Shown one piece after another: positions 8,716-41,161 of a stretch of 64,000 nucleotides of DNA; positions within the stretch are counted from its first letter, which is position 1, and every line of letters starts with the position of its first letter. The stretch comes from a virus: the IMG/VR virus record IMGVR_UViG_3300043449_002450, positions 32,001 to 96,000 of that record; one strand, given 5' to 3'. Both the position numbers and the translations under genes were made by a program. The notes below the pieces were generated by a model. It saw only the letters and a program-made list of their open reading frames with translations. It was not told the DNA's origin and did no database searches.

Positions 8716-8721
8716 TTGTTT

Positions 8722-8749: not shown

Positions 8750-8772
8750 ATTGACATGAAAGGACACACTAG

Positions 8773-11540: not shown

Positions 11541-11573
11541 TTTTCACCTGTGCTATTGTTTAGCACAGGTACC

Positions 11574-12818: not shown

Positions 12819-13978
12819 TGAGAATAGTTGTTCGTGCACCATTACTAAGCATTTCAGGTTATGGTCAACATAGCAGGCAAGTCTATGAAGCTGTTAAGAC
12901 AATACCAGATTCTCAAGTGAGCACACAGGTTGTCCAGTGGGGAAACACGTCGTGGTATATCAATTCTGATGCTGAGAACGGGCTGATCGGTGAGATTATG
13001 TCAAGGTCATCTGACCAGTCAAGTGGATTTGATGTGTCATTTCAAGTCCAGCTACCTGATGAGTGGTCACCAAATCTTGCTCGCATCAATATTGGAATAA
13101 CAGCTGCAGTCGAGACAGATCGTTGCAATCCTGAGTGGATCCAGCGGTGCAACCAAATGTCTGCGATTGTTGTCCCATCAGCTTTTACTAAGAGCGTTTT
13201 GACATCTACGGGTGACGTAAAAGTTCCGATCTATGTCATAGGAGAATGGTATATTAAAGAAATCGATCAAGCACCAGAGGCGCTGGATGTAGACTTTAGA
13301 ACACCATTTAATTTTCTTATTGTTAGTCAAATGTCATCTCCTGATTCTACGATTGATAGGAAGAACATCACAAACACCCTTAAGTGGATATGTGAGACAT
13401 TCAAAGATGACCCATCTGTGGGTATAATCTTAAAGACAAATAGTGGTCGTGGAACAGATATTGACAGGCATGTTACTGTCGGAGCTCTTAACCATATTAT
13501 TAGCTCGATAAGACAGACTTCATCCACGCCGATCTATTTGATGCACGGAAATATGACAAATCAAGAAATTGCCTCGTTGTATGTGCACCCAAAGGTAAAA
13601 GCGCTCGTGAGTCTCACGCGCGGCGAAGGATTTGGACTACCGATACTTGAAGCAGCAGCATCAAGCTTACCTGTTGTTGCTACAGATTGGTCGGCTCACA
13701 CTGAGTTTATGAATCTTGGTAAGTGGATTAAGATCGAAAAGCAGAAGATGGTCATACCCACAAGCAGAGTTGATGGAAGAATCTTTGTCGAGGGTGTGTC
13801 TTGGGCAGATCCTTCTGAAGCTGATTTTAAGAAGAAGATTAAGAAGTTTAGAGAGTCGCATATTGTTCCAAAAGGCTGGGCAACAGATCTAGCCAAGATT
13901 TGCAGAACAAGATACACACGTGATAAAATCATTGAAGACTATCAAGGTCTCTTCAACGAGCTGATCGTTAATGTTTGA
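12818..13978 (+). CDS. Glycosyltransferase family 4
   Basis: SGYGQHSR, DRKN, RGEGFGLPILEA, TDWSAHTEF motifs. Confidence 0.9.
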   Translation: MRIVVRAPLLSISGYGQHSRQVYEAVKTIPDSQVSTQVVQWGNTSWYINSDAENGLIGEIMSRSSDQSSGFDVSFQVQLPDEWSPNLARINIGITAAVETDRCNPEWIQRCNQMSAIVVPSAFTKSVLTSTGDVKVPIYVIGEWYIKEIDQAPEALDVDFRTPFNFLIVSQMSSPDSTIDRKNITNTLKWICETFKDDPSVGIILKTNSGRGTDIDRHVTVGALNHIISSIRQTSSTPIYLMHGNMTNQEIASLYVHPKVKALVSLTRGEGFGLPILEAAASSLPVVATDWSAHTEFMNLGKWIKIEKQKMVIPTSRVDGRIFVEGVSWADPSEADFKKKIKKFRESHIVPKGWATDLAKICRTRYTRDKIIEDYQGLFNELIVNV

Positions 13979-19794: not shown

Positions 19795-21309
19795 GTGTAT
19801 AGAGTCTTCCAGACAGATAAAGATGCATACATTACCAACAAGATAATATCGCCAACGCTTAGAGCTGTTGATTCTAACACTGGTCAAGCTGGAACTGTCG
19901 ATCTTTTTAAACTTTATGATGAGAATACCATAGAAGGAGAATCTGCACCAATTGAGCTTTCGCGAGGACTAATTCACTTTGATATAACAGAACTTAGTAG
20001 ATCGTTAGCAGCGGGTGAATTTGACATAAGGTCTTCTAACTTTAAGTGTAGACTTTACATGCATGATGTCTACGGAGGCCAAACAACACCATCAAATTTC
20101 TCTTTAGTTGTTTATCCATTATCAAAAAGTTTTGACGAAGGAATAGGAAGAGACATTATTAGATTTGAAGATATTGATGTTGTGAACTACATTACAGCAT
20201 CCACATCACTATCGGCAACAATGTGGTCCACACAGGGCGCCGGCGCTGGAGGCACACTAGGCAATCCTAACTTAGACTACTTTACACAGGGTAATCTAAA
20301 TGATGGGCTAGGTGTTCTAACATTTGCCGTGACACAATCATTCGAATCTGGTGAAGAGGATCTTGATGTCGATGTCACTAGAATCATGTCAGGCGTCCTG
20401 TCAGGACAAATGCCCGATGCAGGATTTAGAATATCATTCATAGATGCGCAGGAGCAAGATGCAAAGACTCGATTTGTCAAGAGATTCGCTTCAAGAAACA
20501 CTACAAACACTTCAAAAAGGCCCGAGCTTATTGTCACATATGATGACACAATATCTGATAGCACTCAAATCTTCGAGTTCAACACAACAGGATCAATATT
20601 TTTAAACTCATTTAATAGAGGTGCACCTGCAAACCTACTGTCAGGTTCCGCTTTGGCGTCTCTTACGGGACAAAACTGCTTAAAAGTAAAGATTACATCG
20701 GGATCATTGACAAGAACATTCGACGCATCACAGCACAAGATAGGAAACACTTACATCGTAGGGGTGTATTCTGCGTCATTTCTTGTAAACTCGTTTGATA
20801 ACGACATTTTTCCTTATATGACAGCATCAAATTACCCGTCGCTTGAATTCGGTGTTAAATGGCTGTCACAAGACCAAACAGTTCAATTTGCTACGGGCAC
20901 TCTCAACATCGCACATCGTAATACAACATATTTTTCTCAAACACCCGAGCGCTATTTTGTAAACATTACAAATATGAGATCATCATATAAGTTTACTGAG
21001 AAATTTAGATTCCGGCTCTTCATCGAAGACTTTAACCGCGAAATTAAATCTGTTAAGACGCCTTTAGAAAATACAGGTATTGTTGTTGAAAATTGTCAAT
21101 TCAGAGTCAGAGACTTTGAGAGTGGTGACATTATTATCCCATTCCATGATCCTGGCACAAAGACATCTAATGATGCAACGACTCATTATTTTGACTTCTA
21201 TATGTCTTCTCTGCCTAGAGGAAGGACATACACGTTTGACTTTAAGATTATTAATAAGGGTCAAGAAATCGTTATTAATGATGTAGCAGCCAAATTTAGG
21301 GTGGAATAA
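19795..21309 (+). CDS. Putative baseplate/virion structural protein
   Basis: DKDAYIT...SRGLIHFD...RPELIVTYDD resembles DNRLRE-type beta domains; follows the gp6-like gene; GTG start with AGGAG. Confidence 0.6.
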   Translation: MYRVFQTDKDAYITNKIISPTLRAVDSNTGQAGTVDLFKLYDENTIEGESAPIELSRGLIHFDITELSRSLAAGEFDIRSSNFKCRLYMHDVYGGQTTPSNFSLVVYPLSKSFDEGIGRDIIRFEDIDVVNYITASTSLSATMWSTQGAGAGGTLGNPNLDYFTQGNLNDGLGVLTFAVTQSFESGEEDLDVDVTRIMSGVLSGQMPDAGFRISFIDAQEQDAKTRFVKRFASRNTTNTSKRPELIVTYDDTISDSTQIFEFNTTGSIFLNSFNRGAPANLLSGSALASLTGQNCLKVKITSGSLTRTFDASQHKIGNTYIVGVYSASFLVNSFDNDIFPYMTASNYPSLEFGVKWLSQDQTVQFATGTLNIAHRNTTYFSQTPERYFVNITNMRSSYKFTEKFRFRLFIEDFNREIKSVKTPLENTGIVVENCQFRVRDFESGDIIIPFHDPGTKTSNDATTHYFDFYMSSLPRGRTYTFDFKIINKGQEIVINDVAAKFRVE

Positions 21310-24300
21310 TGCCTCGCCTGAGAACAAGACCTTCGATCTTCAAGGCAAAATCAAGCCTAAGTTCAACAAATGGAATTAGTAGATCTGTTAGTAATAGCAC
21401 CTTATTTGGAAGAAACACGTCAAATGATTCTTTCGCATTAGACTCATACAAATCAGGAATTAAATCAACACAGCAGCTATCTATTAATTTTTCTAACTTT
21501 GAGAACCATACATTTTTTGCTCCTGCAAGAGCCAAGGTTGACATTGCAGCCCACAAAGTTTTTAATGAATTTCCTTACACAGGATCTTTGAGCGATATTG
21601 ACGCTTTCTTACAAAGCTTGACAGGTTTTGAGCGCTATGTCTATGATAACACACCTAAAAATGCCGGATATCTGCTATTTCAAGGTGCAGTTAACAACGG
21701 GACATTTATAGATGTAAGTCCAATATCCGGTAATAAGTTTCCCAAAGCACCCGGTGCTACAAGCCAAAATGCTTTATCTCTGTCAAGTAGCCCATTTGAA
21801 ATAGAAGCACACGTCTATGTTTCACCTAATGCCAATAATGTCCAAATAATCACCCAAAGATCATCATCAGACGCTGCCTTTACGCTTGCGCTTGACCAAT
21901 CAGCAAGCACAACACAGTGCAACTTAATGTTCCTGGTATCATCAGCCTCAGACGCCTATGTCATAGCATCCGCTTCCATAGGAAAAGGACAATTTAATCA
22001 TCTTCGGGCGAGATTAAATTCCGAACTAAGCGGAAAAAGAGCAGTAATTTACTTAAATGGCAATCTAATAGCATCATCATCTGATATACAGGACTTTGGT
22101 GATCTTAATTTCACAACACAGAGCATGCTGATAGGTTCTGGATCTGCGCATGGCATCATTGATTATGCCATTAGCCCAGTGACAACATTTGACGGCGCAA
22201 TTGATGAATTTAGATTTTTTGTTGGTGATCGGACGCAAGATGATGCTGAAAAATATGCATACCAGCAGATCTATAAAAATGATTTGATGAAGCTTAGGTT
22301 TGGATTTGACGAACCTTATGGGACGTATGATTGTGAAGACGTCGTTCTAGATTCATCTGGGAATGCTTTACATTCTTATATTAATAACTACACAAGCATC
22401 TTAAGGTTGACATCATCAATCTCATTACCCCTTACGCGCCAGGATTATTACTATAGTCCCATTCTATTTGCAGATGAGCTAACTACACAAACTTACTACC
22501 AGTCACTCATCACAAGCGCATCTGAATATGATAGTGACAACCCTAACATTATTTTTACTCTTGTTCCACTTCACTACTTGGTCGAGAGTGCAAATGCGTC
22601 AGGTCTCATCGATTATGACAGCGGCTTAGGAACACTTCCCACACTTGATACAATACCTGGCACAGGTAACCTAGCCACTACAGCTGCTCTGACACGAATT
22701 CTATGCACATTATCAATACCGCTCGATGAAATTAAGCAGTTTGTTGATAGCATGTCTAAGCTTCTCGCCATCGAACTAGACTCAGATGAAGATGTAAGTG
22801 ACCAAATGCTTCCATTTGTTGCTGACTACTTTGGTGTAGAACTTCCTAACTTTTTTGCTAAATCAAACACAGAACAATTTGTCTTTGGAGAAAATGTTCT
22901 AGAAGACCAGGTAACAGACTACACTCTAAAAGAACTACGAAGCACACTTTGGCGTAGAATTTTGGCAAATATGCCAAACATTAACGTGTCTAAAGGCACA
23001 CCATCTGCTGTAAGATCGGTATTCTTATCATCAGGTATTGTTCCCGAAAACTTTTTTGAGATTAGAGAGTTGGGCATGGCAGGCGAGACACGCTTGCAAG
23101 ACAAGAGAGAGCAGACAGTAGAAGTCATGTCTGTTCTTGACTTCTCAGGAAGTTTAGCAGCACCTACAGGAAGCAACGCTTTAATGGGGTTCAAGAGTGA
23201 TTCACCAAGGGTCGTCGGTTCCTACTTAAGCGCATCCAGAGTAGAAGTAGGATACCCATATCCTGTCGGAACATTTACCAACAAAGACATTTATTACCCA
23301 CATGGAATATCTAATAGCACTAGAGATGGTCTTTTAACAAGCGGATCTTTTTCAGTCGAAGCATCATACGTCTTTGATGTTACAAAGACACACCCAGCAC
23401 CACAGAGCCTGATGCGACTGGAGACAACATCAAGCTCGGGCTTTAACCCGCTTCTAATGAATTTAGTCTACAATCATGCAGGCATATCGGGTAGTGTTAC
23501 TTGCTCTCTATGCGTTGATTCAGTCAATACAACTAATCCAAGCGTGCTAAATTTAGTTTTGACAGGTGTCAACCTTTATGATGGTGATCGCTGGGTTGTA
23601 GGACTTGAGAAGAAAAGGCTCGATGATTTAGGCATATCATCGGGAAGCAACTACACATTAAGATGCGGTCGTCAAGCAGGCAATACTGTAGCTTTTTTCA
23701 CGACTTCGTCTTATTTCCTAGAGACGACAAATAGCGCCAATAATGCATTTTGCAACGTTGGAACACACAATGCATCTGGTAGCTTTGTAGTGATTGGATC
23801 GCAAAGTATTGACGATACACACAGCTTATTTTTAAATAATTTTGGATCAAAAGAGACACTCTTTACGGGCAAGATATCGGGAGTTAGATTTTGGTCAACT
23901 GATATTGGTCAAGCATCGTTTATCGAACACGTGAGGAGCGCCTACAATATAGGCACAAGCAACCCAGAATTAGGTCTGGGATTCGATTTGGTCCAGACAG
24001 GTGCATACCAACGGCTTCGTGTAGATGCTAGCTGCGATCAATCTACGATCAACGCAGACACGGCAGGAAATATTAGATTGTTTGATTTTAGCCAAAATTC
24101 ACTGCACTTGAGTGGATCTGGCTTTGAAGCTGGCGCGACAGTCATTAAGCCTTATAGGCAGTTTATTAATCGATTGGCACCTAGATTTGACTTGCAACAA
24201 AGCTCAAACAAGGTAAGAATAAGGGGACTTAATACTGTCCTGCCCACTGATCCCCAATATGTCATAACAGGACCTGCCTATGAGATCTATAGCGTTGACA

Positions 24301-24644
24301 ACATAGTTGATGATGTTCGATATTCAATAGAGCACTCAATAGTAAAAGCACTTGATCAAGATATTATTGCGACTATTGGAGACACACAGTATCTTGATAA
24401 TGCGTTAGGTAGCCAGGCAGACCTCTACGCAGATTCTTACAGCGATCTTGACCATCTTTCAAATGTTTATTTTAATAGGTTAACAGATAAAGTTGATATT
24501 ATGAGAACATATGAGGTTTTTAGATGGGTTGATACTGCCTTAAGTCAGCTTATAGAGTCGATTCTTCCCAAGAGAACAAGATTTTTAGGTATCAACTACG
24601 TTATAGAACCACACATACTTGAAAGAGGAAAAATTAGATACTAA
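21309..24644 (+). CDS. Large baseplate-associated protein with LamG/concanavalin-like domains and a P2 gpI/gp7-like segment
   Basis: FDGAIDEFRF...LRFGFDE..VLDSSGN and FTGKISGVRFW (LamG-like); MLPFVADYFG...ILANMPNINVSKGTPSAVR (wedge-like). May extend to 24731 (see findings). Confidence 0.7.
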   Translation: MPRLRTRPSIFKAKSSLSSTNGISRSVSNSTLFGRNTSNDSFALDSYKSGIKSTQQLSINFSNFENHTFFAPARAKVDIAAHKVFNEFPYTGSLSDIDAFLQSLTGFERYVYDNTPKNAGYLLFQGAVNNGTFIDVSPISGNKFPKAPGATSQNALSLSSSPFEIEAHVYVSPNANNVQIITQRSSSDAAFTLALDQSASTTQCNLMFLVSSASDAYVIASASIGKGQFNHLRARLNSELSGKRAVIYLNGNLIASSSDIQDFGDLNFTTQSMLIGSGSAHGIIDYAISPVTTFDGAIDEFRFFVGDRTQDDAEKYAYQQIYKNDLMKLRFGFDEPYGTYDCEDVVLDSSGNALHSYINNYTSILRLTSSISLPLTRQDYYYSPILFADELTTQTYYQSLITSASEYDSDNPNIIFTLVPLHYLVESANASGLIDYDSGLGTLPTLDTIPGTGNLATTAALTRILCTLSIPLDEIKQFVDSMSKLLAIELDSDEDVSDQMLPFVADYFGVELPNFFAKSNTEQFVFGENVLEDQVTDYTLKELRSTLWRRILANMPNINVSKGTPSAVRSVFLSSGIVPENFFEIRELGMAGETRLQDKREQTVEVMSVLDFSGSLAAPTGSNALMGFKSDSPRVVGSYLSASRVEVGYPYPVGTFTNKDIYYPHGISNSTRDGLLTSGSFSVEASYVFDVTKTHPAPQSLMRLETTSSSGFNPLLMNLVYNHAGISGSVTCSLCVDSVNTTNPSVLNLVLTGVNLYDGDRWVVGLEKKRLDDLGISSGSNYTLRCGRQAGNTVAFFTTSSYFLETTNSANNAFCNVGTHNASGSFVVIGSQSIDDTHSLFLNNFGSKETLFTGKISGVRFWSTDIGQASFIEHVRSAYNIGTSNPELGLGFDLVQTGAYQRLRVDASCDQSTINADTAGNIRLFDFSQNSLHLSGSGFEAGATVIKPYRQFINRLAPRFDLQQSSNKVRIRGLNTVLPTDPQYVITGPAYEIYSVDNIVDDVRYSIEHSIVKALDQDIIATIGDTQYLDNALGSQADLYADSYSDLDHLSNVYFNRLTDKVDIMRTYEVFRWVDTALSQLIESILPKRTRFLGINYVIEPHILERGKIRY

Positions 24645-24727
24645 TCGGATGAGATGGCTATTTCGACAACAGGCAGAAAAGTTTCTGCGACAATTAGTAA
24701 AGTTGAGTTTTCTGCAGGAAAGACTAA

Positions 24728-25444
24728 ATGAAGCCCTATAATGATCAAGGAACATTTAGATATCACGATACAACAGTGTCGCCGATATCATCAAGTTTTT
24801 CTCCAGATCTAAACTTTGCGCAAGGTGTCGAGATAAGACAGGGTAGAAATGTCTTTAAAGCATCGGCACGGCCATTTATCTCATCGGGCCGCTGGTTGGA
24901 TATGCAGGAAGATGGTGTCATCGACCAAGAAGTTGCACCTTCTGTTCTAGGCGTGCTAATTGATCCTCTACCCTACGTAAAGTTTAATGATGCTGATGAG
25001 CGAAGAGCACCAAGCCAGATCCTTCAAGATGAAGAGATAGTTAGATCAGACACTATAGATTATAGTGATGACACAAGCAAAGACGGGCGAGCCACGGTTT
25101 TTAACCTAAATGCTAGAAGCTACATCTTTCGTGATGAAATACCGCTCCCAGCACGTGGCGTAAAGATCAACAATGAATCAATTCAGGGATACAGCGTAGG
25201 CACAAGATTTTCTCCCTACTACGAAGATGGAGAAAGCATACTTGGAATAGTGAAGCTAGGATTCCATGGAACACCCAGCGAAGTTGTAGACATATACTAC
25301 GACACTGTGCTGACAAGCTCGCTTGGCACAAAGATTGATTATGACTCGTTTGATCCGCTTAGCGTGTATGGATCATTTGGGCGCGATCTATATTCGGCAA
25401 TATTCGAGACGGATTCGGTAGCATACGCGGGGTTATTGAGATGA
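24728..25444 (+). CDS. Hypothetical protein in the tail/baseplate module
   Basis: 238-aa ORF; ATGA overlap with the next gene. Confidence 0.6.
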   Translation: MKPYNDQGTFRYHDTTVSPISSSFSPDLNFAQGVEIRQGRNVFKASARPFISSGRWLDMQEDGVIDQEVAPSVLGVLIDPLPYVKFNDADERRAPSQILQDEEIVRSDTIDYSDDTSKDGRATVFNLNARSYIFRDEIPLPARGVKINNESIQGYSVGTRFSPYYEDGESILGIVKLGFHGTPSEVVDIYYDTVLTSSLGTKIDYDSFDPLSVYGSFGRDLYSAIFETDSVAYAGLLR

Positions 25445-28413
25445 AAAGCAGAATACTTAATGTTTCGCCTCGTCCCTATCTAAGAGACTTAGATTCCAAA
25501 AATGTCTTACCCGCAATTGTCAGGACAGGATATCAAAATGAGATTGGATCAAAAAATGAGCCGTTCAATGATGCTGATGTTTTAGTCTACACATCAAGTC
25601 AAGTCATTGCGCCCTACATGATCCCATCGGCATCTGCAGGTTTTACGACAGGCTCTCTAATTTTCACAAGCAACATTAAAGATTCAACGTCATACCTTGA
25701 CAAGCCTGTCGTCAATGGTGTGCTTTCACCGTTTATTGAATATTCAAATCCCGCAGGTTATAACTTAGGTTCTGAAGATAAAGGTTTCCCGCAAAACACA
25801 TATCCGGGTTTTTCGTCTCCTGAAAAAGATAAAATTGCCATAACAATCGACATAACACCCAGCGCTGAGAAAAAACTTACACGTCTTAGTAGAGCTGACA
25901 GCATATCAGGATCTGCGGCTGGCGAGTTTTATGATTCAACACACACAGGATTTGCTTATTTCAACTTTGTAAATAAGACATGGGACTATGTCGGTGAGAC
26001 TGATCCTGTAACAGGAGCGGATCTAAATTACACTTCTATCTTGACTTCGTCTGATGCTAGAATGACAAGCGGTCATAGAAAGATGATGTCGCAGTTTTGT
26101 AGCACACCTAACGTTGCAGGATCAACTAATCCTGCTGCGGGTTTAGCGCCTACGACTGTTAGCCAGCAATATGATAGAGGCTACGATAAAATTGGTGAGC
26201 CAACCTCAATGTTTGAGGCACCATACGCACCGCGCTATCATGCTAATCAAAACCAAACAATCAAACTTTCAGACTACATTAAGCATCCAATTGTTGTGGA
26301 CAGATTCTCAGTCGAGCTTCCTGTTAAATCTAGAAGAATTCAAAATCCACCCGTAGATGCCACTTGGTCAAGAGACACTGGATTTGGACGAGATATTGAT
26401 AACTACGTTGTCTTCCTATACACACAAAATAGATCAAATGCTGTCAAAGACAGCATAACGGATGTCTCAAGTAGCATAAGAAATCTAGTAGCTAGAAAGT
26501 CATTCTGCTTCTATAACACACAGACATTTTCTTCTGGCCTACAAGCACAGCCTATAATACATGATGCAGCCTACTCTGCGTCATTTAGCATGACATCAAC
26601 TCAAGCCAAGACGGCAGGCGTTCGCCAGATAGAAGAAATTGATGCAAATGTCTATATGACATTTCGGCCCACAACATTTAATCAATATTATGGTGGACAA
26701 TCAAAATACGGCGCATTTAGAGAAAATGCTTCATCAAAAGACAACATCATACTGCAGCATTTTTGGCGCGGCGGACAGTATGCATCTGGTTCTACAAATG
26801 ACAGCTTTGTTCGATGGGGATCGTCGACCTACACGTTAAATAAAATGGCAGGCTATGAAGCTGAATCGGGCAGCATGAACCAGAGCCTTGTTGCTACCGT
26901 CCCAAGCCAGCGGGCGCTTATTAGCTCATTTTGGAAATCATCACAAGATACAAGAACAGATACAGCATGGACTCCTGATGCTAAAATATCAACAGAAATT
27001 TCATGTAGTGTCGAGACGCCAATTATTCTATTTCCTGAAGACGAGCTAGTCCTCGGAATCGAGTCAGGTGTTCATCCAAATACAGCATTTGTTAATTCTA
27101 CAGGAAGCGGCTTAGATGAATCATTGTTTAACGTCACAGGTTCAGTGCTCACCATCAAACAAGAGAATGCTAAGATTGTAATCTATGGATCTCTTGTGCA
27201 GAATGCAAAAGAACTTTTGCCCAGTCTAAACCAGCATCTCGGCTCAGCGGCTGTCAGCGAGGATATACACTATAACAACTCAGTTGTAGATCAATATGAT
27301 GTCTATCCGCGTGCTTATTACTCGGCTTCATACATTAATAACATCATAAACGGATCTAATCTTCCTAATAGAAGAAGAATTGGTAATTTCACTGACGTAA
27401 ATCCCGCTCAAAGCATTTCAAGAGGTTATCTAACATATGCAAATACACAATTCACGGGTTCATTTTCGAGAAATTTAAAGATCTTTGATCAAGATGTTGT
27501 CTTTTATGATTCAATGACACCTGCGCCTAGCGCAATTGCAGCTGGAATTACAAGCGCATCAGCCAATTTGACAGCCTCATACACAGGATCTGCTGGCTCT
27601 CAAACGTTAATCAGCGCGTCAGTGCCGCCATCTAGAGTAAGAATTGATAGAATATTTGTTGATACAGATGTTACGGTTAGTGTATTTCCTGCCGTAAACA
27701 TAGACATACCAGTTTTTGCAATCCAAAATATCAAACCAGGCGAAAATACTTATGATGTTGGAGGCGTGTCTGTTAAATTCATTAGTAATGATAAAAGATA
27801 TTTTAGAAATGCTTTTGCTTACGAAACAAGCACAGAAAATACGCAGAGGAGTAGAGAAATTGAGCTAGAGCTCATAAGAGCACCACTAACAAGCTTGTCT
27901 CCGATCGCGTTTGGTGTAACATCAGTTCTTGGAAGAGGCGACGCAGCACGTGCTTTGCTTTATTATGATTCTTCATGGCATCCTCTTTTCAATGACTTTG
28001 AGCCCGATATTGATCCTCCTTTTAAATTCAACTACGGTGCAGGCGCAGCATCAATACGTTATGGCCTTTCTAACATACGTCTAACACCACCAACATACGT
28101 TTTTAAACGAGATCATTATGGCTTTGTTCGAGACATGCTAGAACAGTCACGCGATTCTAGAGCACAATATCTAGTTGGATCAAAGCCAGTTGTTACAGAT
28201 AGTGTCGTTATTGCTGAGTTTGTTAGTGCATCATCGGACATTAAAGCTGACCCATACAGGACTCAGTGTAATAACGTCAGTAGATTTTGTACATCGTCTG
28301 TTCCTTACGATGATGGACGTGTTAGAAGCAGAGGCGCTGTTCCTGCTGTAACATTGTCAATTGGCCCCAACAATCTCATTTTTGGTGTTACAGGTAGCTT
28401 TGGATTCAAATAG
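25441..28413 (+). CDS. Large Ser/Thr-rich putative virion protein
   Basis: 990 aa, beta-rich composition, 16 [ST][GA]S motifs, within the structural operon. Confidence 0.65.
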   Translation: MKSRILNVSPRPYLRDLDSKNVLPAIVRTGYQNEIGSKNEPFNDADVLVYTSSQVIAPYMIPSASAGFTTGSLIFTSNIKDSTSYLDKPVVNGVLSPFIEYSNPAGYNLGSEDKGFPQNTYPGFSSPEKDKIAITIDITPSAEKKLTRLSRADSISGSAAGEFYDSTHTGFAYFNFVNKTWDYVGETDPVTGADLNYTSILTSSDARMTSGHRKMMSQFCSTPNVAGSTNPAAGLAPTTVSQQYDRGYDKIGEPTSMFEAPYAPRYHANQNQTIKLSDYIKHPIVVDRFSVELPVKSRRIQNPPVDATWSRDTGFGRDIDNYVVFLYTQNRSNAVKDSITDVSSSIRNLVARKSFCFYNTQTFSSGLQAQPIIHDAAYSASFSMTSTQAKTAGVRQIEEIDANVYMTFRPTTFNQYYGGQSKYGAFRENASSKDNIILQHFWRGGQYASGSTNDSFVRWGSSTYTLNKMAGYEAESGSMNQSLVATVPSQRALISSFWKSSQDTRTDTAWTPDAKISTEISCSVETPIILFPEDELVLGIESGVHPNTAFVNSTGSGLDESLFNVTGSVLTIKQENAKIVIYGSLVQNAKELLPSLNQHLGSAAVSEDIHYNNSVVDQYDVYPRAYYSASYINNIINGSNLPNRRRIGNFTDVNPAQSISRGYLTYANTQFTGSFSRNLKIFDQDVVFYDSMTPAPSAIAAGITSASANLTASYTGSAGSQTLISASVPPSRVRIDRIFVDTDVTVSVFPAVNIDIPVFAIQNIKPGENTYDVGGVSVKFISNDKRYFRNAFAYETSTENTQRSREIELELIRAPLTSLSPIAFGVTSVLGRGDAARALLYYDSSWHPLFNDFEPDIDPPFKFNYGAGAASIRYGLSNIRLTPPTYVFKRDHYGFVRDMLEQSRDSRAQYLVGSKPVVTDSVVIAEFVSASSDIKADPYRTQCNNVSRFCTSSVPYDDGRVRSRGAVPAVTLSIGPNNLIFGVTGSFGFK

Positions 28414-28416
28414 TTA
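28410..28416 (+). promoter_or_regulatory. Putative late promoter motif ATAGTTA
   Basis: Instance overlapping the upstream stop, before GAGG and ATG 28432. Confidence 0.5.
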
Positions 28417-28431
28417 GATTAGAGGATTGAG

Positions 28432-29373
28432 ATGGGTTTCTTAAACTCTAAGACTAGGATCATGGACGTTGTGATGACTCCCCTTGGGCGTGCATCTCTA
28501 GCGACAGGAGGATTGACTGTATCATACGCGTCATTCACAGATGGCCAGACATATTACGATGCAAGCAGCATAAGCGGATCCTATGATGACGCAGTTGATC
28601 GTGTCTTTTTGGAAAGTCCACCATCGCTTCCTCAAGACACGTATGCAATTGTGACAGACGACACCGGACAGATAATTCCTGTGGACGCATTTGGGACTAA
28701 AGTTACCGCAAAAGGAGATCTATTCCAGGGAGGAAAGGATGTCACCCGCCTTAATAATACGGGATCATTCTCTTCAGCTATCAGCAGTGTGACCAACTTA
28801 TTTCAAGATTCGATGAGATTTGGCACAATCATCGCGTCTAGAGATCCACTTGATGATCACCCAGATTTGATATTATCGACTACAACGGCCTCATTTCAGA
28901 TAAATAACTCTGAACCATTTGATCTGGATGACAAGCCAATCTCAGTTAACGCTGCGCCAAGCCTTTTCTTTGATAAGCGCCTGACGAACTTTGCACAGTT
29001 CACATATTTGCCGCCCACTGTTAAAAAAAATGATGTCTATAGCAAGCTAGGCAGATACAAAAATATAAAGTCACACGACAGATACACTTACAACGATTTA
29101 AAAAATGACCTACAGGGAAAAAGCGGCACACCCAAGCGGCAAAGAGTCGACATAGAGATAACAGACACATCAGAAACTAATGATATTGTTATCCAGCTAT
29201 TTGAGACAAATAATAATGGAATTATTAAGTTGGATGCTGTTGATTACGGCCAGTTCGTGGATTCGAAAGACAGAGATCATCCAAGCAAGAGAGTCATATT
29301 TTATGGCAAGGTATTTGTTGATGAGACAGGCTCTCCAACATTCGTCAACTTGTTTACCATGGTAATTGACTGA
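28432..29373 (+). CDS. Putative baseplate/fibre-attachment protein (N-terminus paralogous to 36765..37469)
   Basis: MGFLNSKTRIMDVVMTPLGRASLA aligns with MGFLDQSTNNIILDAVLTDAGRNLLA. Confidence 0.6.
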   Translation: MGFLNSKTRIMDVVMTPLGRASLATGGLTVSYASFTDGQTYYDASSISGSYDDAVDRVFLESPPSLPQDTYAIVTDDTGQIIPVDAFGTKVTAKGDLFQGGKDVTRLNNTGSFSSAISSVTNLFQDSMRFGTIIASRDPLDDHPDLILSTTTASFQINNSEPFDLDDKPISVNAAPSLFFDKRLTNFAQFTYLPPTVKKNDVYSKLGRYKNIKSHDRYTYNDLKNDLQGKSGTPKRQRVDIEITDTSETNDIVIQLFETNNNGIIKLDAVDYGQFVDSKDRDHPSKRVIFYGKVFVDETGSPTFVNLFTMVID

Positions 29374-34844: not shown

Positions 34845-36712
34845 TGAAAACTCAAGCTCAAAATAAGTCAAGTCAAGAGCGCGAAGAAGATCTAATACAG
34901 ACAACTACGTTACCCTTTTATAGCGTTAATCTACCTACCTTGACACAAGGCGAGGAAATTAGTGCTAAATTTGTCTACAACTACTACACACGAGATGAAG
35001 GCATATCAGAAACAACGTCACTATCGGGACTGCAGAGAGATACGGATGAATATGATTTCGTTGTTGAGAATTACGAGAGAAATGCTTTCCCAAGATATGT
35101 CAACATACAGATAAAGCCCCCAAAGACTGTTACTAAAAAAACTACTCTACCAAGAGAAACTACATTAAAAATTCAGAGAAATCCTGACAGCTTTATAGTC
35201 TACGAAGACGCTCCTTTTAATGATAAATTTTGTTCAATCATCGTGAATGATACAGCAATCGATGATAAAATCTATTTACAGTCAAATAGTCAGTCTTCCA
35301 CCAGCCAATCCGATATTAGGCGGATTGGAAGTATAAGCAATATTTCTTTACCCAAACGCGACTTTTTAAATAATGCAAACTTACAGTCTGCAGGAATTAG
35401 ATTTTCAGAAGCACAAGCGCGTCAAGAAGTTGTTGATTCTTATGCCAAAGACGTTAAAGCAATTAATCTAGGTATATCTATAAATTCGCTGCTAGTCTCG
35501 GACATGATTAGAACTGTTGAGAGATGGCAATCGTCAGTGTTTACTGATGAGTATGCAGCAGCATTTTCTGATGCCGACAAAAAGCAATCCAATTCAAGAG
35601 CAATCGACGACCCACTCAGGATTAGACAAGAAGAGCTTGATGTCGAGATTCCAGCGTATGATACTAGGCTACTATCGAGTGCAAATGCATCCGACTTCAG
35701 AACTGGAATAATTTCTCTAGCAGGCTTTATCATAGAAAAATATGGTGAGCAGCTTGATGGCACGACAAGACGCTATGATGACATATACATTTGGGATCCG
35801 AACGCCACCGCTTATCAAGATTCAAATGTTAGATACGGTGCAGTTTATAAATACAGACTCCGATCCTTGTATAGCAAAGTGATCTATGAATCTTCAAATT
35901 TAAAATCAGTCAAAGGTGTTAAGAGCGACACAAATAGAAAAATCATCGCTGCAAGTGTAATGCTTGCATCAGGAGGAACATTTACATCTTTGCAATGTAT
36001 TGAATCTATTCCTCCCAATCCTCCTAACAACATTACATTTCAACAAACGCTAAACGGACTTTATATAAGATGGAATTTTCCAATTAATAAACAAAAAGAC
36101 ATTAAGAGATTCCAAGTCTTTAGAAGAACGTCTATTACGGACCCATTTGAGCTAATTCAAGAGATAAATTTTGATCAGACATTGTTGCCGTATACGTCTG
36201 GTGAAAATGTTCCAGAAGAGCTAGTGCTAAGAGCTGATGGGCCGATTAAGCATTACCTTGACAGAGATTTCCAAAAACTCAACAGCGACTTTATTTACGC
36301 AATTTGTTGTATAGATGCACACGGATACTCATCGGCACTGTCAGAGCAATTTAGGGTTAGATTTGACCGCTTGAATGCAAAGCTACTTATAAGCAGAGTT
36401 TCTACAGAAGGTGCGCCAAAACCCTATCCAAATGTTAACATTTTAGGCGATTTTTTTACTGACCTTATTAAGTCAAGCGGATCAAGAAGGATAAGCCTTT
36501 ATTTTGATCCTGAGTATCCTGATGTGACAGACGTTAATGGAAAGTCTCTAAAGCTAATTAATGTCGGCGGCGATGGATCAACTTCATATAAGTTGGTGTT
36601 AACCGAAGTAAATCTTGCACAAAGTCAGGTTGTCGACATTAAACTATCTGATAGAAGAATTGATATTAATGGAATACCACCTAGCCAGGCAAGATTCTAC
36701 ACAGCAAGATAA
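34844..36712 (+). CDS. Fibronectin type III domain-containing putative virion protein
   Basis: YQDSNVRYGAVYKYRL and PPNPPNNITF...LYIRWNFP...IKRFQVFRR...YAICCIDAHGYSSALS. Start at the TAATG overlap (34844). Confidence 0.65.
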   Translation: MKTQAQNKSSQEREEDLIQTTTLPFYSVNLPTLTQGEEISAKFVYNYYTRDEGISETTSLSGLQRDTDEYDFVVENYERNAFPRYVNIQIKPPKTVTKKTTLPRETTLKIQRNPDSFIVYEDAPFNDKFCSIIVNDTAIDDKIYLQSNSQSSTSQSDIRRIGSISNISLPKRDFLNNANLQSAGIRFSEAQARQEVVDSYAKDVKAINLGISINSLLVSDMIRTVERWQSSVFTDEYAAAFSDADKKQSNSRAIDDPLRIRQEELDVEIPAYDTRLLSSANASDFRTGIISLAGFIIEKYGEQLDGTTRRYDDIYIWDPNATAYQDSNVRYGAVYKYRLRSLYSKVIYESSNLKSVKGVKSDTNRKIIAASVMLASGGTFTSLQCIESIPPNPPNNITFQQTLNGLYIRWNFPINKQKDIKRFQVFRRTSITDPFELIQEINFDQTLLPYTSGENVPEELVLRADGPIKHYLDRDFQKLNSDFIYAICCIDAHGYSSALSEQFRVRFDRLNAKLLISRVSTEGAPKPYPNVNILGDFFTDLIKSSGSRRISLYFDPEYPDVTDVNGKSLKLINVGGDGSTSYKLVLTEVNLAQSQVVDIKLSDRRIDINGIPPSQARFYTAR

Positions 36713-36737
36713 TTTTAACTGCAAACTATTTCGCTGA

Positions 36738-36744
36738 ATATTTA
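36738..36744 (+). promoter_or_regulatory. Putative late promoter motif ATATTTA
   Basis: Instance in the intergenic gap before ATG 36765. Confidence 0.5.
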
Positions 36745-36764
36745 AGATAGCGAGGAAATCACTT

Positions 36765-37469
36765 ATGGGTTTTCTAGACCAAAGCACGAACAACATCATC
36801 TTAGACGCCGTTCTCACTGACGCGGGCAGGAATTTGCTTGCGCAACAGGGGCGATTTGTAATTACTAAGTTCACGCTAGCAGACGATGGTGTTGACTATG
36901 GCATCGTCCAGCAATATGGGCGGACTGTAGGAAAAGAAAAGATTGAGAAGAACACGCCCGTCTTCGAGGCGTTGACAAATCCATCACATGCCATAAGAAA
37001 TAGTCTGGTTAGCATTTCTACGGTGTCAAACAATATCACATACATACCGACACTTAATTTGACGCCAGCTGGCGTTGTCTCGCTAAACTTTAGCACAACA
37101 ACATCGCAGCTAGTCACGGTCCAGCTAAGCATCTCAGAGGGATTTTCTAGCCCACCCGAGCTTATTGATGATGACTTCATAGTCATGCTTGATAATCGCT
37201 TTTTACGTGCGTCAACAAAGAGCGTAACAGCGCCAATATCAATATCGCAGACAAGCATGGCAACATACGTTTTCCCGTCCGACCAGACATCGTCAACGAA
37301 CCCACTGTCTACGCTCGCTTTCTCTTTGACGCCCCAGTCTGTTCCTGCAGCAACGCAGGCAGCTTATAAGGTTGCGGGAACGACATATGTCACGTCATAT
37401 GTCAAGGTAGTTGGTAGAAATTCTGGGCAAAGTCAAGACATCAGAGTTAACATTACAACAGCGCAGTAA
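36765..37469 (+). CDS. Putative baseplate/tail-fibre attachment protein
   Basis: DAVLTDAGRNLLA...ITKFTLADD resembles the N-terminus of tail-collar fibre domains; GAGG SD. Confidence 0.6.
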   Translation: MGFLDQSTNNIILDAVLTDAGRNLLAQQGRFVITKFTLADDGVDYGIVQQYGRTVGKEKIEKNTPVFEALTNPSHAIRNSLVSISTVSNNITYIPTLNLTPAGVVSLNFSTTTSQLVTVQLSISEGFSSPPELIDDDFIVMLDNRFLRASTKSVTAPISISQTSMATYVFPSDQTSSTNPLSTLAFSLTPQSVPAATQAAYKVAGTTYVTSYVKVVGRNSGQSQDIRVNITTAQ

Positions 37470-37480
37470 GGAATAGATAA

Positions 37481-38767
37481 ATGCCAGTCTATAAAGCGAT
37501 ATCACCAAACGACATTAAGACAGCAAGATCATACCTGAACCAGCTTGTTGACATTATCCAAGAGAGCGTGAGCGGTTCTAATACTAGAAAGGCTTATGAG
37601 GTCTTCGTTACTGGCTCCGGTGCAGCTGGAGTAACATCTTCGATATTTCAAACTGTCTTTGACCAAGATTTTACTCTTGCAACCGCTAATGAGATGTTTG
37701 ACATCACAGTAGGACTTTATGCGTCCGGCGGAATAGTCACGGGTTCACCAGGCTATAGTGTAGACTCAGCAGGAAAGCTAATTTTTGCTGGCAACACTTT
37801 GATGATGCGCGAGAAAGTGCAGATATACAACCAGATGGCTCAAGCGCTATTAGGTGATAGTTCTGCACAGTTTACGTCGCCATTCACGGGTGCGACTACA
37901 AACGACTACATAGACGCTGCTTTGTTCTTGCCATTTAAGAGACTTTTCGCTCGTGACAAGATAAAACCTGAGACCTTTGCAATGAAGGTTTTCTCAACTG
38001 CTGCATTCGATGGCAGCCAGCTTGCTACAACCTTCGAGCAGAGTGTTAGAAATGCTAGAGTTGGTCCAAATCTTGAAGCTCCTATTGCCTTCAACCCTAT
38101 CATCATAACAGACGCAGGCGCTACAGCGAACCCTGAATACACGTTTGGTGGAACGGTAGGTAATCTTGTCAATGCTTCAAACACAGCTGAAAAAGTTGGA
38201 TTACTATTTTATGATTATGGTGTCGCAGTCCTGGACATCGAGAAGGTCTTCTGGGGCAACCAGCACATGTCAGGAGTTATAAGCGCTGTTACATCTGCGG
38301 CAACTCCTCTGGCAGCAGGAACAACGCTTATTGGTGCTAACCCAAGCTGGTATACTGCAGCAGGTGCCTCTGTAGTTGGTAATGCTAGTGCATCTTTCGT
38401 CCCTGACTTTATGGTGTCTGGATCGATAGATGACATTGTTAATCACATTGCTAGCGTTAGATTTGGCAGTGGATCTGATACAACAGTCACATTCCAGAAT
38501 GTAACAACAATCAATTCGACTCTTGTCTTTTGTGAGGCAGCCGCGGATGAGTTTAACTACTCATCTAATCCAACATTTACAGATGATGATGGAAGAATTG
38601 TCGTGATTGATTCTGGTGCTGAAGATACACAGAAGTCTTTCACTTTCATTACAACAATCGGCCTCTATGATGCAGCTGATAATCTTCTTGCAGTTGCTAA
38701 ACTTTCACGTCCTGTGGAGAAGAACGACGAGAAGAAGCTGACATTTAGAGTTCGGCTAGACTACTGA
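37481..38767 (+). CDS. Putative tail/baseplate structural protein (C-terminus paralogous to 38774..41161)
   Basis: C-terminal EFNYSSNPTF...FITTIGLYD..NLLAVAKLSRPVEK..LTFRVRLDY. Confidence 0.65.
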   Translation: MPVYKAISPNDIKTARSYLNQLVDIIQESVSGSNTRKAYEVFVTGSGAAGVTSSIFQTVFDQDFTLATANEMFDITVGLYASGGIVTGSPGYSVDSAGKLIFAGNTLMMREKVQIYNQMAQALLGDSSAQFTSPFTGATTNDYIDAALFLPFKRLFARDKIKPETFAMKVFSTAAFDGSQLATTFEQSVRNARVGPNLEAPIAFNPIIITDAGATANPEYTFGGTVGNLVNASNTAEKVGLLFYDYGVAVLDIEKVFWGNQHMSGVISAVTSAATPLAAGTTLIGANPSWYTAAGASVVGNASASFVPDFMVSGSIDDIVNHIASVRFGSGSDTTVTFQNVTTINSTLVFCEAAADEFNYSSNPTFTDDDGRIVVIDSGAEDTQKSFTFITTIGLYDAADNLLAVAKLSRPVEKNDEKKLTFRVRLDY

Positions 38768-38773
38768 GATAAC

Positions 38774-41161
38774 ATGTCAATACTGCCGCTCAGCAATGAA
38801 AATGTTGAGCTGACGACGTTGCTATTGCAACCAAGTCAGTCATTTACGACGTCGTCTTTGGGTATGACAGGCAGCATTTTCTTAGTTGCTAAATCTTCTC
38901 CTGCTATTAAGACACTTGTTCGCCCGTACGACCAAGCACCTGTGTCATACACAGAGACGCTTGGTATATCAGATGATGATGATCTCATTTATAGCGCGAG
39001 CGCTGCAATAGCATCTGGCTCAACCAACGTAAAAAATTTAATTAGCGCTTACATGGACAAGGTGAAGGATCAGGACGGTGATCCTCGCGCCGGAATCGTT
39101 TTTAAGCCCGTGTCTTATTTCTCTAAGGGCACAACAGGCGTTCCAGGATACACAGATACAGCAGTCGTTGAGGTTGCTCGCGAAATTAATGCAGAAGACA
39201 CGTATCAATGGCAGAATTATCAACGTAAGGTCATAAGGAATTGTTTGGTTCCAGATGCTCTTGTAGAGAATCCTAGGTCTACTTTTGGTTACACAAACTA
39301 TCACTGTCTTAACATTATGTCAACGAGCTTTTCAAGCGTAGGACAAGCTCTAATATATCCAAACTATAAGACAGCGACAAGGCCCTACACGCCAAGCAGC
39401 GCTTTCACGATAAACTTCTTTGTCAAGCCAAAAAAAATGCTAGACACGCAGAAACCACACGTTGCTGGCACAGTCATGCATCTATCATCATCTTTTGCTG
39501 TGACGATAGTAAGCGGATCAAGAACAGCAGATGATGGCAAACCAGAGACATTTCGTGTCTTATTCCAGATTGGCAGCGGCAGCGCATATTCGCCCAAAGA
39601 TTTAAACCCACTAAGCTTCTTACCAGGTGTAACGCCGCCAAGTTATCCACAAAATTTAATATTTTCTACTGATGATGTCTTAAAGAGAGATGTTTGGCAT
39701 CAAGTTTCTATTAGATGGGACGCCAATAGAAGCTACGGAACAGGATCAATTATAGTTGATAACTCGTATAGAAGAACATTCACATTCCCATCAGGCACCG
39801 TTGACCCATATGGAAGTGCGTCCACGCCGGGCGGTCTTGTCATAGGAAATTTCTATGATAGCGGCGACAGCATATCAAAGTTTTTTAATAGCAACAACAA
39901 TAGCATCGATGGAACCGTTGTCGATCCAAACGCAAGTTCTACTGATCCCACAGGTTTTACTTTTGGCTGTCAACTAAATGCAGAGATCCACCAGCTTTCA
40001 ATTTTTAAGCGATACTTGAGCGATGAGGAAATTGGTGATCTAGCATCTGCTACAGCTATAACTTCATCTAGCGGGCCCGCTTTCTATCTACCTGTTCATT
40101 TTTCTGGGTCAACTTCGAAATACAAGACATATGGGTCACCTAAAGAGTTAAAAACTGTATCAACTGATAGTCCTTTTTCTTATGACATGGCTGCTGGTTA
40201 TAACGGCTACTATCTAAATTTGCAAAATTTCATTGCTGATGCTGTAACGGCGAATCTGCCTCGTGCTTACGGGTATCACAGTCCTGTGCAGTATGGACCC
40301 ACATATGATCTCAAAACACAAGATACAAATGATGTCCTTATGACGCTCAATAGCGTTAAAAGGAGAAATTTTCTTGTGGTTCCCTGTGACAATGGGACAT
40401 ACACACCGACATTTAATAGAATACAGAATGATAATTCTAGATTCACTAAAAATGATGCAGCTACCATATCAATGACACAACTTGTTCCGAATGACGTGTT
40501 GAAAATAACACCAACATTCGCAGACACTTCAATACCCTATGACGGTGTCTTCACGAGCACATTGCAAATCTTACCTGTTCTTCAAAATAGCAATGCAAAT
40601 TTTAGAAGCGGGTATGAGGATCTTAGCTCAAACTTAGTGACAGTGATCTCAATTCCCACACCTTATTACGGCAATAGAATTGTTCCAAATACAGTTGTTT
40701 TGACTGATTCTAGCGTATCGGGCTCAAGTGGGCAGAAGTTCACGCTTAGAGACGACGGAATAGGCAACTTGTACAGGCACGACACAGCTTCTGCCCCTGC
40801 AATGTGGAATAGAGTCGGATCTATATTCTACGATCACGGAATAGTGGCATTAATGAGCCCACACATTCCGTTTTTTGCTAAGGAAGGTTACACAATTAGC
40901 TTTAGGGGCGAGCACAGGAAGCATGTCATGAGCGTTGCAATTCCTGCAAAGCCTGATGCTTTGAACACATCAAGAAACACATCTTATAAACGATTCCCAC
41001 CATCTGATCTTTTGTCCGAGCAGGCAGAAGATTTTGTCTACATCACGGGAATTAACTTGCATGACCAGAATTTTAATGTTGTCATGCGCGCGAAACTGGC
41101 ACAAGCCGTGCACAAGCGTGAAAGTGATGAGATTGTGTTTAGGTTGAGGTATGACTTCTGA
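38774..41161 (+). CDS. LamG-domain putative tail/baseplate structural protein
   Basis: FTINFFVKP...WHQVSIRWD...LNAEIHQLSIFKRYLSDEEI (LamG-like) and C-terminal YITGINLHD..VVMRAKLAQAVHK..FRLRYDF. Confidence 0.7.
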   Translation: MSILPLSNENVELTTLLLQPSQSFTTSSLGMTGSIFLVAKSSPAIKTLVRPYDQAPVSYTETLGISDDDDLIYSASAAIASGSTNVKNLISAYMDKVKDQDGDPRAGIVFKPVSYFSKGTTGVPGYTDTAVVEVAREINAEDTYQWQNYQRKVIRNCLVPDALVENPRSTFGYTNYHCLNIMSTSFSSVGQALIYPNYKTATRPYTPSSAFTINFFVKPKKMLDTQKPHVAGTVMHLSSSFAVTIVSGSRTADDGKPETFRVLFQIGSGSAYSPKDLNPLSFLPGVTPPSYPQNLIFSTDDVLKRDVWHQVSIRWDANRSYGTGSIIVDNSYRRTFTFPSGTVDPYGSASTPGGLVIGNFYDSGDSISKFFNSNNNSIDGTVVDPNASSTDPTGFTFGCQLNAEIHQLSIFKRYLSDEEIGDLASATAITSSSGPAFYLPVHFSGSTSKYKTYGSPKELKTVSTDSPFSYDMAAGYNGYYLNLQNFIADAVTANLPRAYGYHSPVQYGPTYDLKTQDTNDVLMTLNSVKRRNFLVVPCDNGTYTPTFNRIQNDNSRFTKNDAATISMTQLVPNDVLKITPTFADTSIPYDGVFTSTLQILPVLQNSNANFRSGYEDLSSNLVTVISIPTPYYGNRIVPNTVVLTDSSVSGSSGQKFTLRDDGIGNLYRHDTASAPAMWNRVGSIFYDHGIVALMSPHIPFFAKEGYTISFRGEHRKHVMSVAIPAKPDALNTSRNTSYKRFPPSDLLSEQAEDFVYITGINLHDQNFNVVMRAKLAQAVHKRESDEIVFRLRYDF

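Follow-up and report, generated by a model that had tools for sequence, protein, structure and literature searches.

A tripeptide enriched in outward-facing virion proteins of far-T4 phages as a candidate O-glycosylation sequon

Introduction

Why would a tailed phage stud a row of large baseplate- and fibre-region proteins with one and the same tripeptide, [ST]-[GA]-S, and what, if anything, reads it? The question is raised by a 64,000-nucleotide stretch of DNA (the window), which covers positions 32001-96000 of one 176,181-bp viral contig (IMG/VR record IMGVR_UViG_3300043449_002450). The window carries a T4-like structural and packaging module, with genes for gp25-like and gp6-like wedge proteins, the large terminase, the portal, a Gp23-family capsid protein, a gp13-like neck protein and two sheath paralogues; a glycan-synthesis island (338-13978) lies upstream of the baseplate genes. 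Its source is an uncultured aquatic T4-like (far-T4) phage, and the nearest cultured phages, Microcystis phage Mel-JY01 and Flavobacterium phage immuto, are distant (terminase identity 42-44%). An initial annotation, made from the sequence alone, singled out six motif-rich proteins (carriers; here named, like other genes, by their start in the window) and proposed that [ST]-[GA]-S is an acceptor site for the neighbouring glycosyltransferases. The analysis described below establishes that the motif is real and under selection; that it is a sequon for virion O-glycosylation is the best available reading, unproven, to which we assign a probability of about 0.5.

A tripeptide in excess

How large is the excess? 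The motif was counted in each protein and compared with composition-preserving shuffles (observed v shuffle mean, here and below). Pooled, the six carriers hold 56 [ST][GA]S v 11.7 expected, a ~5-fold enrichment (Poisson P ~1e-20; single carriers, the capsid and the neck protein are listed in Table 1). The recount reproduced exactly the numbers first reported for the carriers, as well as those for the terminase (0), the portal (0), the Mre11-Rad50 protein (2, v 1.2 for this Rad50-like protein), the gp13-like neck protein (3) and the putative scaffold (3). The initial caveat that some neighbours carry one site at most also held: the gp6-like protein has 1 v 1.4, open reading frame (ORF) 29373 has 0 v 1.1 and ORF 34826, first listed as 34844, has 1 v 1.0. 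For the sheath, at least four sites had been claimed and five are present (v 3.1); the capsid count is not significant alone, and its sites, said to fall inside an insertion, do so: residues 159, 319, 331 and 346 all precede the main Gp23 match at 365-632. Capsid and sheath sites are confined to lineage-specific insertion regions. Upstream of the window, genome positions 17660-27370 encode three further carriers (43 v 16.6), and the remaining 153 ORFs of the 176-kb genome sit at expectation (73 v 73.1).

A motif defined by eye invites the suspicion that it was defined to fit. When all 8,000 exact tripeptides were ranked blind over the six carriers, SGS (21 v 3.3), TGS (15 v 2.5) and SAS (15 v 3.5) took the first three places; in the same ranking SGT, TGT, SAT, AGS, GGS and NGS are not enriched, and Ser is favoured over Thr at position 3. 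Genome-wide, SGS ranks 1 and TGS 4 among the tripeptides of this phage. Could the excess still be a statistical or compositional artefact? Ser/Gly-rich low-complexity fibres do swell motif counts in related phages: a Ser/Gly/Thr-rich fibre-like protein of immuto (1053 aa; record 97658-100819) has 53 sites v 12, and another from Mel-JY01 (record 635-3052) has 39 v 21, SGT-type tandem repeats dominating the tripeptide ranking of that genome. An artefact is nevertheless scarcely credible, having been tested and found unsupported: the enrichment survives shuffling, the unbiased ranking and, in the carriers, a first-order Markov expectation (SGS still 21 v 9.8), is written in varied codons and is replicated in four genomes.

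Is the signal in the protein or in the DNA? Codons at the 56 sites are diverse and no 9-mer recurs, which indicates selection on the protein and rules out a DNA-level explanation. Paralogy or internal repeats were likewise rejected as a source: all-against-all BLASTP and hhalign comparison of family profiles revealed no homology among the carrier families save two short terminal segments. The flanks are hydrophobic at -2, -1 and +3, in agreement with the initial annotation, and depleted of charge; beyond these two features, a search for an extended consensus around the sites found none.

Conservation among metagenomic relatives

Does the pattern outlive a single genome? Loci fetched from IMG/VR comprise 32 around the gene for the 990-aa carrier 25441 (L001-L032) and 80 around the gp6-like gene, which has at least 551 relatives there. 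Carrier 25441 has 58 metagenomic homologues; relatives span 25-81% identity to the query, and 38 aligned sequences total 398 motifs v 119 expected, with a TGS at residue 566 invariant in all 38. Gene order is kept: sugar-nucleotide genes, a nuclease, two adjacent genes for family 4 glycosyltransferases (GT4a and GT4b), three small baseplate genes, gp25 and gp6 are followed by 19795-, 21309-, 24728-, 25441-, 28432-, 29373-, 31299-, 34826-, 36765- and 37481-like genes. So is the split between carriers and non-carriers, which is maintained in >100 metagenomic relatives. In L001-L032 (larger sets agree), the carrier families are 2.7-5.5-fold enriched, with 227 v 41.6 for 19795, 391 v 100.8 for 21309, 234 v 85.6 for 25441, 41 v 14.6 for 28432 and 18 v 4.8 for 37481, whereas gp6 (10 v 40.3), 24728 (0 v 6.1), 29373 (16 v 19.1), 31299 (23 v 21.6), gp25 and 34826 are at or under expectation. 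In the larger sets, the 19795 family is enriched 5.7-fold (78 relatives) and has ten columns with the motif in at least 50% of sequences, the 21309 family 4.1-fold (56 relatives) and the 28432 family 3.0-fold, its residue-48 site being kept in 21/24. Residues exchange at conserved columns among TGS, SGS, TAS, SAS, SSS, SGT and, at times, SGA.

Some families are depleted of the motif: the gp6-like (0.38-fold, 86 relatives) and 24728-25444 (0.30-fold) baseplate families, and GT4a itself (0.34-fold). This depletion may reflect avoidance of the motif where modification is unwanted, or just shared ancestry.

Beyond the clade, density and position part ways. Among gp7-like homologues (25-32% identity), few positions are common even between motif-rich phages (1/3, 2/8 and 1/5 aligned sites), yet density is maintained, with 13 sites in Mel-JY01, 8 in immuto and 14 in this phage; the homologue from phage LR756508 has 4 in 1400 aa. 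A few sites are very old; among them are residue 265 of the 19795 family, where TGS is found, and, in the gp7-like family, two columns of SGS/TGS. Steady density with drifting positions would be expected of a selected short linear motif, and less of an element determined by the fold, and suggests the former as far as alignments, uncertain at such distance, can be trusted. Within the clade, turnover in the style of a glycan shield was considered and discarded, sporadic sites being near expectation.

Covariation with a pair of glycosyltransferases

If the motif is read by an enzyme, the enzyme should travel with it. The nuclease-GT4a-GT4b block is present in every relative with enough upstream DNA (~25 IMG/VR loci and five long contigs). 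The cultured phages immuto, Mel-JY01 and Rhodothermus phage RM378, whose core proteins are just 30-44% identical to those of this phage, have orthologous adjacent GT4a-GT4b pairs elsewhere in the genome (GT4a identity 25-31%); the co-occurrence of the motif with the pair, which was placed at 11574-13978 and in fact spans 11550-13978, thus extends to every relative examined. In Mel-JY01, the GT4a orthologue consists of two adjacent ORFs of 190 and 302 aa (L124:3442-4933; record ~83.4-84.9 kb); a frameshift, an error in sequencing and a true split of the gene are all conceivable.

Eight whole genomes were scanned for the share of ORFs with a motif excess at P<0.01 and for the rank of SGS among the 8,000 tripeptides. 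The four genomes with the pair stand at 5.3% and rank 1 (this phage), 6.9% and rank 1 (immuto), 6.0% and rank 4 (Mel-JY01), and 5.5% and rank 3 (RM378). Without the pair, T4 has 0% and rank 2859, the cyanophage S-RIM2 0.8% and rank 11, and S-CBS4, which has one distant GT4, 2.6% and rank 244; LR756508, with GT4a only, has 0.2% (1/478) and rank 147. Equal enrichment in relatives without the glycosyltransferases, which would speak for some other cause, was looked for in T4, S-RIM2, S-CBS4 and LR756508 and not found. In the cultured positive relatives immuto, Mel-JY01 and RM378, TGS joins SGS among the leading tripeptides of the whole genome, 7-12 ORFs are strongly enriched, clustered in baseplate and fibre modules, and the gp13-like homologue of RM378 is enriched as in this phage (3 v 0.29). 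RM378 also encodes, at record positions 25085-25387, a 100-aa ORF with five [ST][GA]S v 0.46, possibly for a small protein of the decoration or fibre type.

The genome that tells most about this link is that of LR756508. In terL and major capsid protein trees, it is nested among the four positive phages (nesting support 93-95%), and the split of LR756508 and the positive phages from T4 and S-RIM2 has support of 100/100. LR756508 keeps the nuclease and GT4a, and no GT4b was found in it by protein search, family profile or Pfam; in its homologues of the carriers, the motif excess is gone while the fold is kept. This distribution suggests, on the thin basis of one gain and one loss, that GT4b and the motif move together.

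The candidate writer and its neighbours

What kind of enzyme is the pair? GT4a belongs to family 4 (Pfam PF00534/PF13692, 52.4 bits; cut-off 26.4), and the Pfam match of GT4b is weak (29.2-30.0 bits over ~60 residues only). The E-x7-E signature of GT4a is EGFGLGTLE (293-301), in which E293 and E301 are invariant in 24 sequences; that of GT4b is EGFGLPILE (270-278), where the first Glu does not vary and conservation of the second is lower. In the PDB and NCBIfam, both proteins match generic GT4 only, the best matches being GT4s that act on small molecules and lipids, BshA and MshA among them. The two proteins are predicted to bind each other: the modelled heterodimer has an interaction prediction score from aligned errors (ipSAE) of 0.86 vs 0.00 for the best control, the mark being reached by 58/80 solved complexes and 2/110 mismatched pairs (a rough calibration here, with self-built alignments). 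Three runs agree in 100% of contacts, the predicted local distance difference test (pLDDT) value of the partners is at least 92, and in the model the C-terminal tail of GT4a (416-422) packs on GT4b residues 238-247; the high score could also reflect likeness to solved glycosyltransferase pairs.

The genes upstream look like a supply line. The island proper (338-10715) encodes two clear GT2s, one weak GT2 and one more GT4; a GDP-mannose 4,6-dehydratase (GMD), a UDP-glucose/GDP-mannose dehydrogenase and two epimerase/reductases of the short-chain dehydrogenase/reductase type; and FkbM and TylF methyltransferases and an HtrL/YibB protein. Pfam and NCBIfam searches of the island found no flippase, polymerase or phosphoglycosyl transferase; this lack of lipid-linked pathway genes fits stepwise direct transfer to a soluble acceptor.

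Might that acceptor be DNA? T4 glycosylates its hydroxymethylcytosine, phage enzymes of the GT-B fold do modify DNA (10.1101/2023.12.21.572611), and the pair always adjoins a nuclease and has a 5'-3' exonuclease and ribonucleotide reductase as neighbours in RM378; the island and the pair could then decorate phage DNA, leaving the protein motif unrelated. This is very improbable. Immuto has the orthologous pair, yet liquid chromatography-mass spectrometry of its digested DNA revealed only dA, dC, dT and fdPreQ1 (PMC10516641); the lack of a glycosylated base weakens the DNA explanation, by the literature and for immuto alone. Moreover, known DNA-modifying GT-B enzymes resemble T4 beta-GT, not family 4, and covariation of the motif with GT4b would be left unexplained. 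As for the nuclease, it lies directly upstream of GT4a in immuto, Mel-JY01 and LR756508 as well, and the 5'-3' exonuclease homologue takes its place in RM378; linked as it is to the pair, it may have nothing to do with the motif.

Another possibility is that the pair does not read the motif and something else does: phosphorylation, acylation, a host enzyme, or a chaperone or decoration protein for which it is a tag, with the island and the pair serving elsewhere, for example in remodelling of host surface glycans or in making a small-molecule glycoside. In its favour, the tripeptide has the behaviour of a short linear motif under selection, and BshA- and MshA-type matches do not disclose the acceptor of a GT4. 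We consider this improbable: in a phylogenetic profile, GT4a, GT4b and the nucleases are the only enzymes that the motif-rich phages have in common and that go undetected in T4 and S-RIM2, and in LR756508 GT4b and the motif are lost together. One specific candidate, a PrkA kinase, was rejected as writer, as it is not common to immuto, Mel-JY01 and RM378.

How the pair is expressed is a separate matter: the T4-type late promoter TATAAATA has two matches in the window, which is the chance level, and neither is near the GT4 operon.

Sequon or structural motif?

If [ST]-[GA]-S is a sequon, how would the system work? The motif, with [ST]-G-S as its core, would be the acceptor or recognition signal on outward virion proteins: the outer baseplate, the fibres, and the capsid and sheath insertions. 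A soluble two-subunit GT4, with GT4a as the putative catalytic subunit and GT4b as its partner, would read it in the host cytoplasm and prime a Ser/Thr hydroxyl. The island GT2 and GT4 enzymes, GMD, dehydrogenase, epimerases and O-methyltransferases would make and extend the glycan, which would hold deoxyhexose and uronate and be partly methylated. The outcome would be a sugar coat on the tail tip and particle surface that might serve stability, receptor contact or evasion of hosts and grazers.

A number of observations weigh against this mechanism. Some concern the sites: within the clade, most occurrences fall at ~10 conserved columns per family and sporadic ones are at about chance, a positional conservation that any conserved structural or functional role would produce alike; SGA and TGA substitutions at conserved sites drop the third hydroxyl; four of the eleven sites placed on a model of the 19795 family (6, 310, 326 and 367) are predicted to lie in strand interiors; and a putative internal scaffold is enriched (3 v 0.63). 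Others concern the enzymes: generic GT4 matches leave the acceptor class unreadable from sequence, and the pair neighbours neither the baseplate module nor other structural genes in immuto, Mel-JY01 and RM378. On a tree of seven taxa, the covariation comes down to a single gain and a single loss, the loss falls in a 484-kb jumbo phage with many other differences, and S-RIM2, devoid of GT4, owes SGS rank 11 to Gly/Ser-rich low-complexity proteins. Finally, no literature report of virion glycan or glycoprotein staining was found for RM378, immuto or Mel-JY01. The step from motif to sequon-directed virion O-glycosylation taken by the initial annotation is partly supported: it has the enrichment and the GT4 covariation behind it, but inherits a link made of those two evolutionary events and sites that are fixed in the clade.

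The main rival would explain the positional conservation. The tripeptide could be an unmodified structural or assembly motif, a small-residue idiom used at strand ends, in hairpins, as helix caps or in packing, with the GT4 link a phylogenetic coincidence. Where, then, do the sites lie? An AlphaFold2 model of the 19795 family (pLDDT 86.9; predicted template modelling score 0.85) is a chain of beta-sandwich domains of the FN3/Ig/CBM-like kind, and its Foldseek matches are FN3, MG (macroglobulin) and CBM domains and uncharacterised virion proteins. The eleven sites, present in the window or conserved in the family, include, apart from those in strand interiors, three at strand starts or ends (265, 283 and 302, the last in a textbook two-residue hairpin, residues 302-304), three at helix ends (72, 216 and 343) and one in coil (134). 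The model of the 990-aa carrier (pLDDT 56) gave only noise in Foldseek against the PDB and was not used.

Much of this would suit a structural idiom: hydrophobic, charge-poor flanks are as found at strand ends, one site forms the hairpin and others cap helices, modelled or assigned carriers are rich in beta-sandwich, and replacement of SGS by SGA and of TGS by TGA suggests that small size outweighs the hydroxyl. However, the mixed secondary-structure contexts, of which there are at least four, mean that no single turn type accounts for the sites, and BLASTP and profile comparison find no homology between the carrier families. T4 supplies a control: its gp6-gp12, wac, sheath and capsid proteins together have 4 motifs v ~13 expected, so that a generic property of beta-rich baseplates is excluded, and the beta-rich neighbours gp6, 24728, 29373 and 31299 of the carriers themselves show no excess. 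Deep homologues hold density rather than position, and those of LR756508 lose the motif while keeping the fold. On balance, we consider a purely structural role unlikely, if clearly to be reckoned with. Two arguments of the initial annotation are qualified by the same data. Its statement that the carriers have unrelated folds agrees with the lack of BLASTP or profile homology, but the beta-sandwich chain of 19795 and the LamG beta-sandwich of 21309 indicate that they may share a fold class; convergent selection, which fits the lack of homology, is to that extent inseparable from a common beta-sandwich fold class.

In a strand, positions 1 and 3 of the motif face one way and the small middle residue the opposite way, which would place two hydroxyls on one face. 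What would follow from a sequon? Cultured members of the clade infect Flavobacterium, Microcystis and Rhodothermus; a big, ecologically important group of marine and freshwater phages, among them phages of bloom-forming Microcystis and of Flavobacteria, would be sugar-decorating its host-recognition apparatus, and the coat would matter for adsorption and host range, for the stability of the particle and for its recognition by grazers or defences. To our knowledge, chemically documented glycosylation of phage virions is so far limited to a few mycobacteriophages. Among tailed phages, the clade would then have the first system of protein O-glycosylation to be defined by a sequon, with targets predictable from sequence alone, and glyco-engineering would gain a tag and an enzyme pair that are compact and portable. 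The full claim, that a very abundant, worldwide far-T4 clade coats baseplate, fibres and capsid/sheath via an [ST]-G-S sequon whose writer is a new heterodimeric GT4 acting on folded or folding beta-sandwich proteins, is tentative and falls a little short of an even bet. Even if these proteins are not glycosylated, a top-ranking tripeptide in four divergent genomes (SGS rank 1-4 of 8,000) still wants an explanation.

Parallels in known glycosylation systems

Are there precedents for a phage or virus that glycosylates its own particle? In mycobacteriophages, phage-encoded glycosyltransferases glycosylate capsid and tail tube proteins (PMC12363180 and PMC11256854, citing Freeman et al. 2023). 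The likeness is broad: in Che8, Corndog and Myrna, phage glycosyltransferases modify their own virion in the bacterial cytoplasm and build a glycan coat. The mycobacteriophage case is chemically demonstrated, concerns siphoviruses and one myovirus of actinobacteria, and, in the portions of the two papers that are available, comes with no description of an [ST]-G-S sequon. By contrast, the main putative targets in the far-T4 clade are the outer baseplate and fibres, and the candidate writer is a GT4 heterodimer known from sequence and model.

The closest mechanistic analogue of that writer is GtfA-GtfB (PMC6973325), a two-protein complex of paralogous GT-B subunits, as is predicted for GT4a-GT4b, with one subunit catalytic and one acceptor-holding. 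GtfA-GtfB primes cytoplasmic O-glycosylation of Ser/Thr, glycosyltransferases from the same locus extend the product, and the acceptors have Ser alternating with small residues. The analogy is one of mechanism; membership of that family is another matter, which the locus fails: neither GT4a nor GT4b passes the GtfA model TIGR02918 (E=0.007, 15 bits vs a cut-off of 574.6), and neither has a match to the GtfB model or the DUF1975 domain in NCBIfam or Pfam. Unlike GtfA-GtfB, both GT4a and GT4b keep the first Glu of E-x7-E, and the putative acceptors would carry their tripeptides scattered over folded beta-sandwich domains instead of lined up in long disordered repeats.

For the island, a parallel is found in chloroviruses, whose own enzymes add glycans to the capsid protein while it is in the cytoplasm (PMC5408694). 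The PBCV-1 set, with glycosyltransferases including GT4, GMD, a GDP-sugar epimerase/reductase, UDP-glucose dehydrogenase and a sugar methyltransferase, resembles that encoded at 338-13978, and the capsid sites are non-canonical. PBCV-1 differs in being a eukaryotic giant virus in which N-linked glycans are placed on Asn outside N-X-S/T, on one capsid protein and without [ST]-G-S (PMC5408694).

The site context has a parallel too. The bacterial autotransporter heptosyltransferases TibC/AAH O-glycosylate many Ser/Thr residues in the cytoplasm. Their sites are found where a short loop links two short beta-strands in the beta-rich passenger domain, a setting that resembles the hydrophobic-[ST]GS-hydrophobic context of the carriers. 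These enzymes differ in forming an iron-containing dodecamer family, in transferring heptose and in having bacterial adhesins as substrates.

Organization of the locus

The features discussed above are collected in Table 1.

Table 1. Features of the window, with counts of [ST][GA]S (observed v shuffle mean).
Feature	Position	Strand	Description	[ST][GA]S
Glycan-synthesis island proper	338..10715	.	identified with Pfam + NCBIfam; gene content differs among relatives	
PD-(D/E)XK nuclease	10731..11540	+	Pfam PF12705; directly upstream of GT4a throughout clade	
GT4a	11550..12818	+	GT-B fold family-4 glycosyltransferase, 422 aa	
GT4b	12818..13978	+	divergent GT4 paralogue, 386 aa; start overlaps GT4a stop codon (one codon)	
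gp6-like baseplate wedge	17939..19786	+	PHROG baseplate wedge match; conserved non-carrier, internal negative control	
Carrier 1	19795..21309	+	504 aa; directly after gp6-like wedge gene	6 v 1.1
Carrier 2	21309..24644	+	1111 aa; gp7 position	14 v 3.3
Carrier 3	25441..28413	+	990 aa; without known family	16 v 3.3
Carrier 4	28432..29373	+	313 aa	4 v 0.6
Carrier 5	37481..38767	+	428 aa	6 v 1.3
Carrier 6	38774..41161	+	795 aa; C-terminal domain in common with carrier 5	10 v 2.1
Major capsid protein (Gp23 family)	55268..57196	+	lineage-specific insertion	4 v 1.8
gp13-like neck protein	58146..59321	+		3 v 0.56

What are the carriers? Sequence and profile searches of Pfam, PHROGs and the PDB assigned them to no family, except for a LamG/ConA-like domain at residues 154-311 of carrier 2 (Pfam PF13385). 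The cultured-phage collection holds no or almost no close homologues of the 990-aa and 1111-aa carriers, the latter having weak ones in Mel-JY01, immuto and LR756508. In carrier 1, the motif starts at residues 134, 265, 283, 302, 326 and 343. The C-terminal domain of carrier 5 (~100 aa) recurs in several fibre-like proteins of Mel-JY01, immuto and RM378, and the last 47 residues of carrier 6 match carrier 5 with an hhalign probability of 83%.

Beyond the carriers, the tail sheath is encoded twice in tandem, by a gene that starts in the window (61193-64000) and continues to genome position 96294 and by another at genome positions 96307-99204. The two paralogues (1033 and 965 aa) align from end to end at 32% identity. 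Each has large insertions, and none of the motif sites (5 in the first, 6 in the second) falls within the conserved C-terminal sheath domain. Base composition changes over the head and neck genes (capsid, scaffold-like and neck), where GC content rises from ~38-45% to 50-52% (window 52000-60000), which suggests that the genes expressed at the highest level have a codon usage of their own. In many relatives, a conserved ORF of ~105 aa is found between GT4b and the first baseplate gene, where the window has a 230-bp gap (13979-14208).

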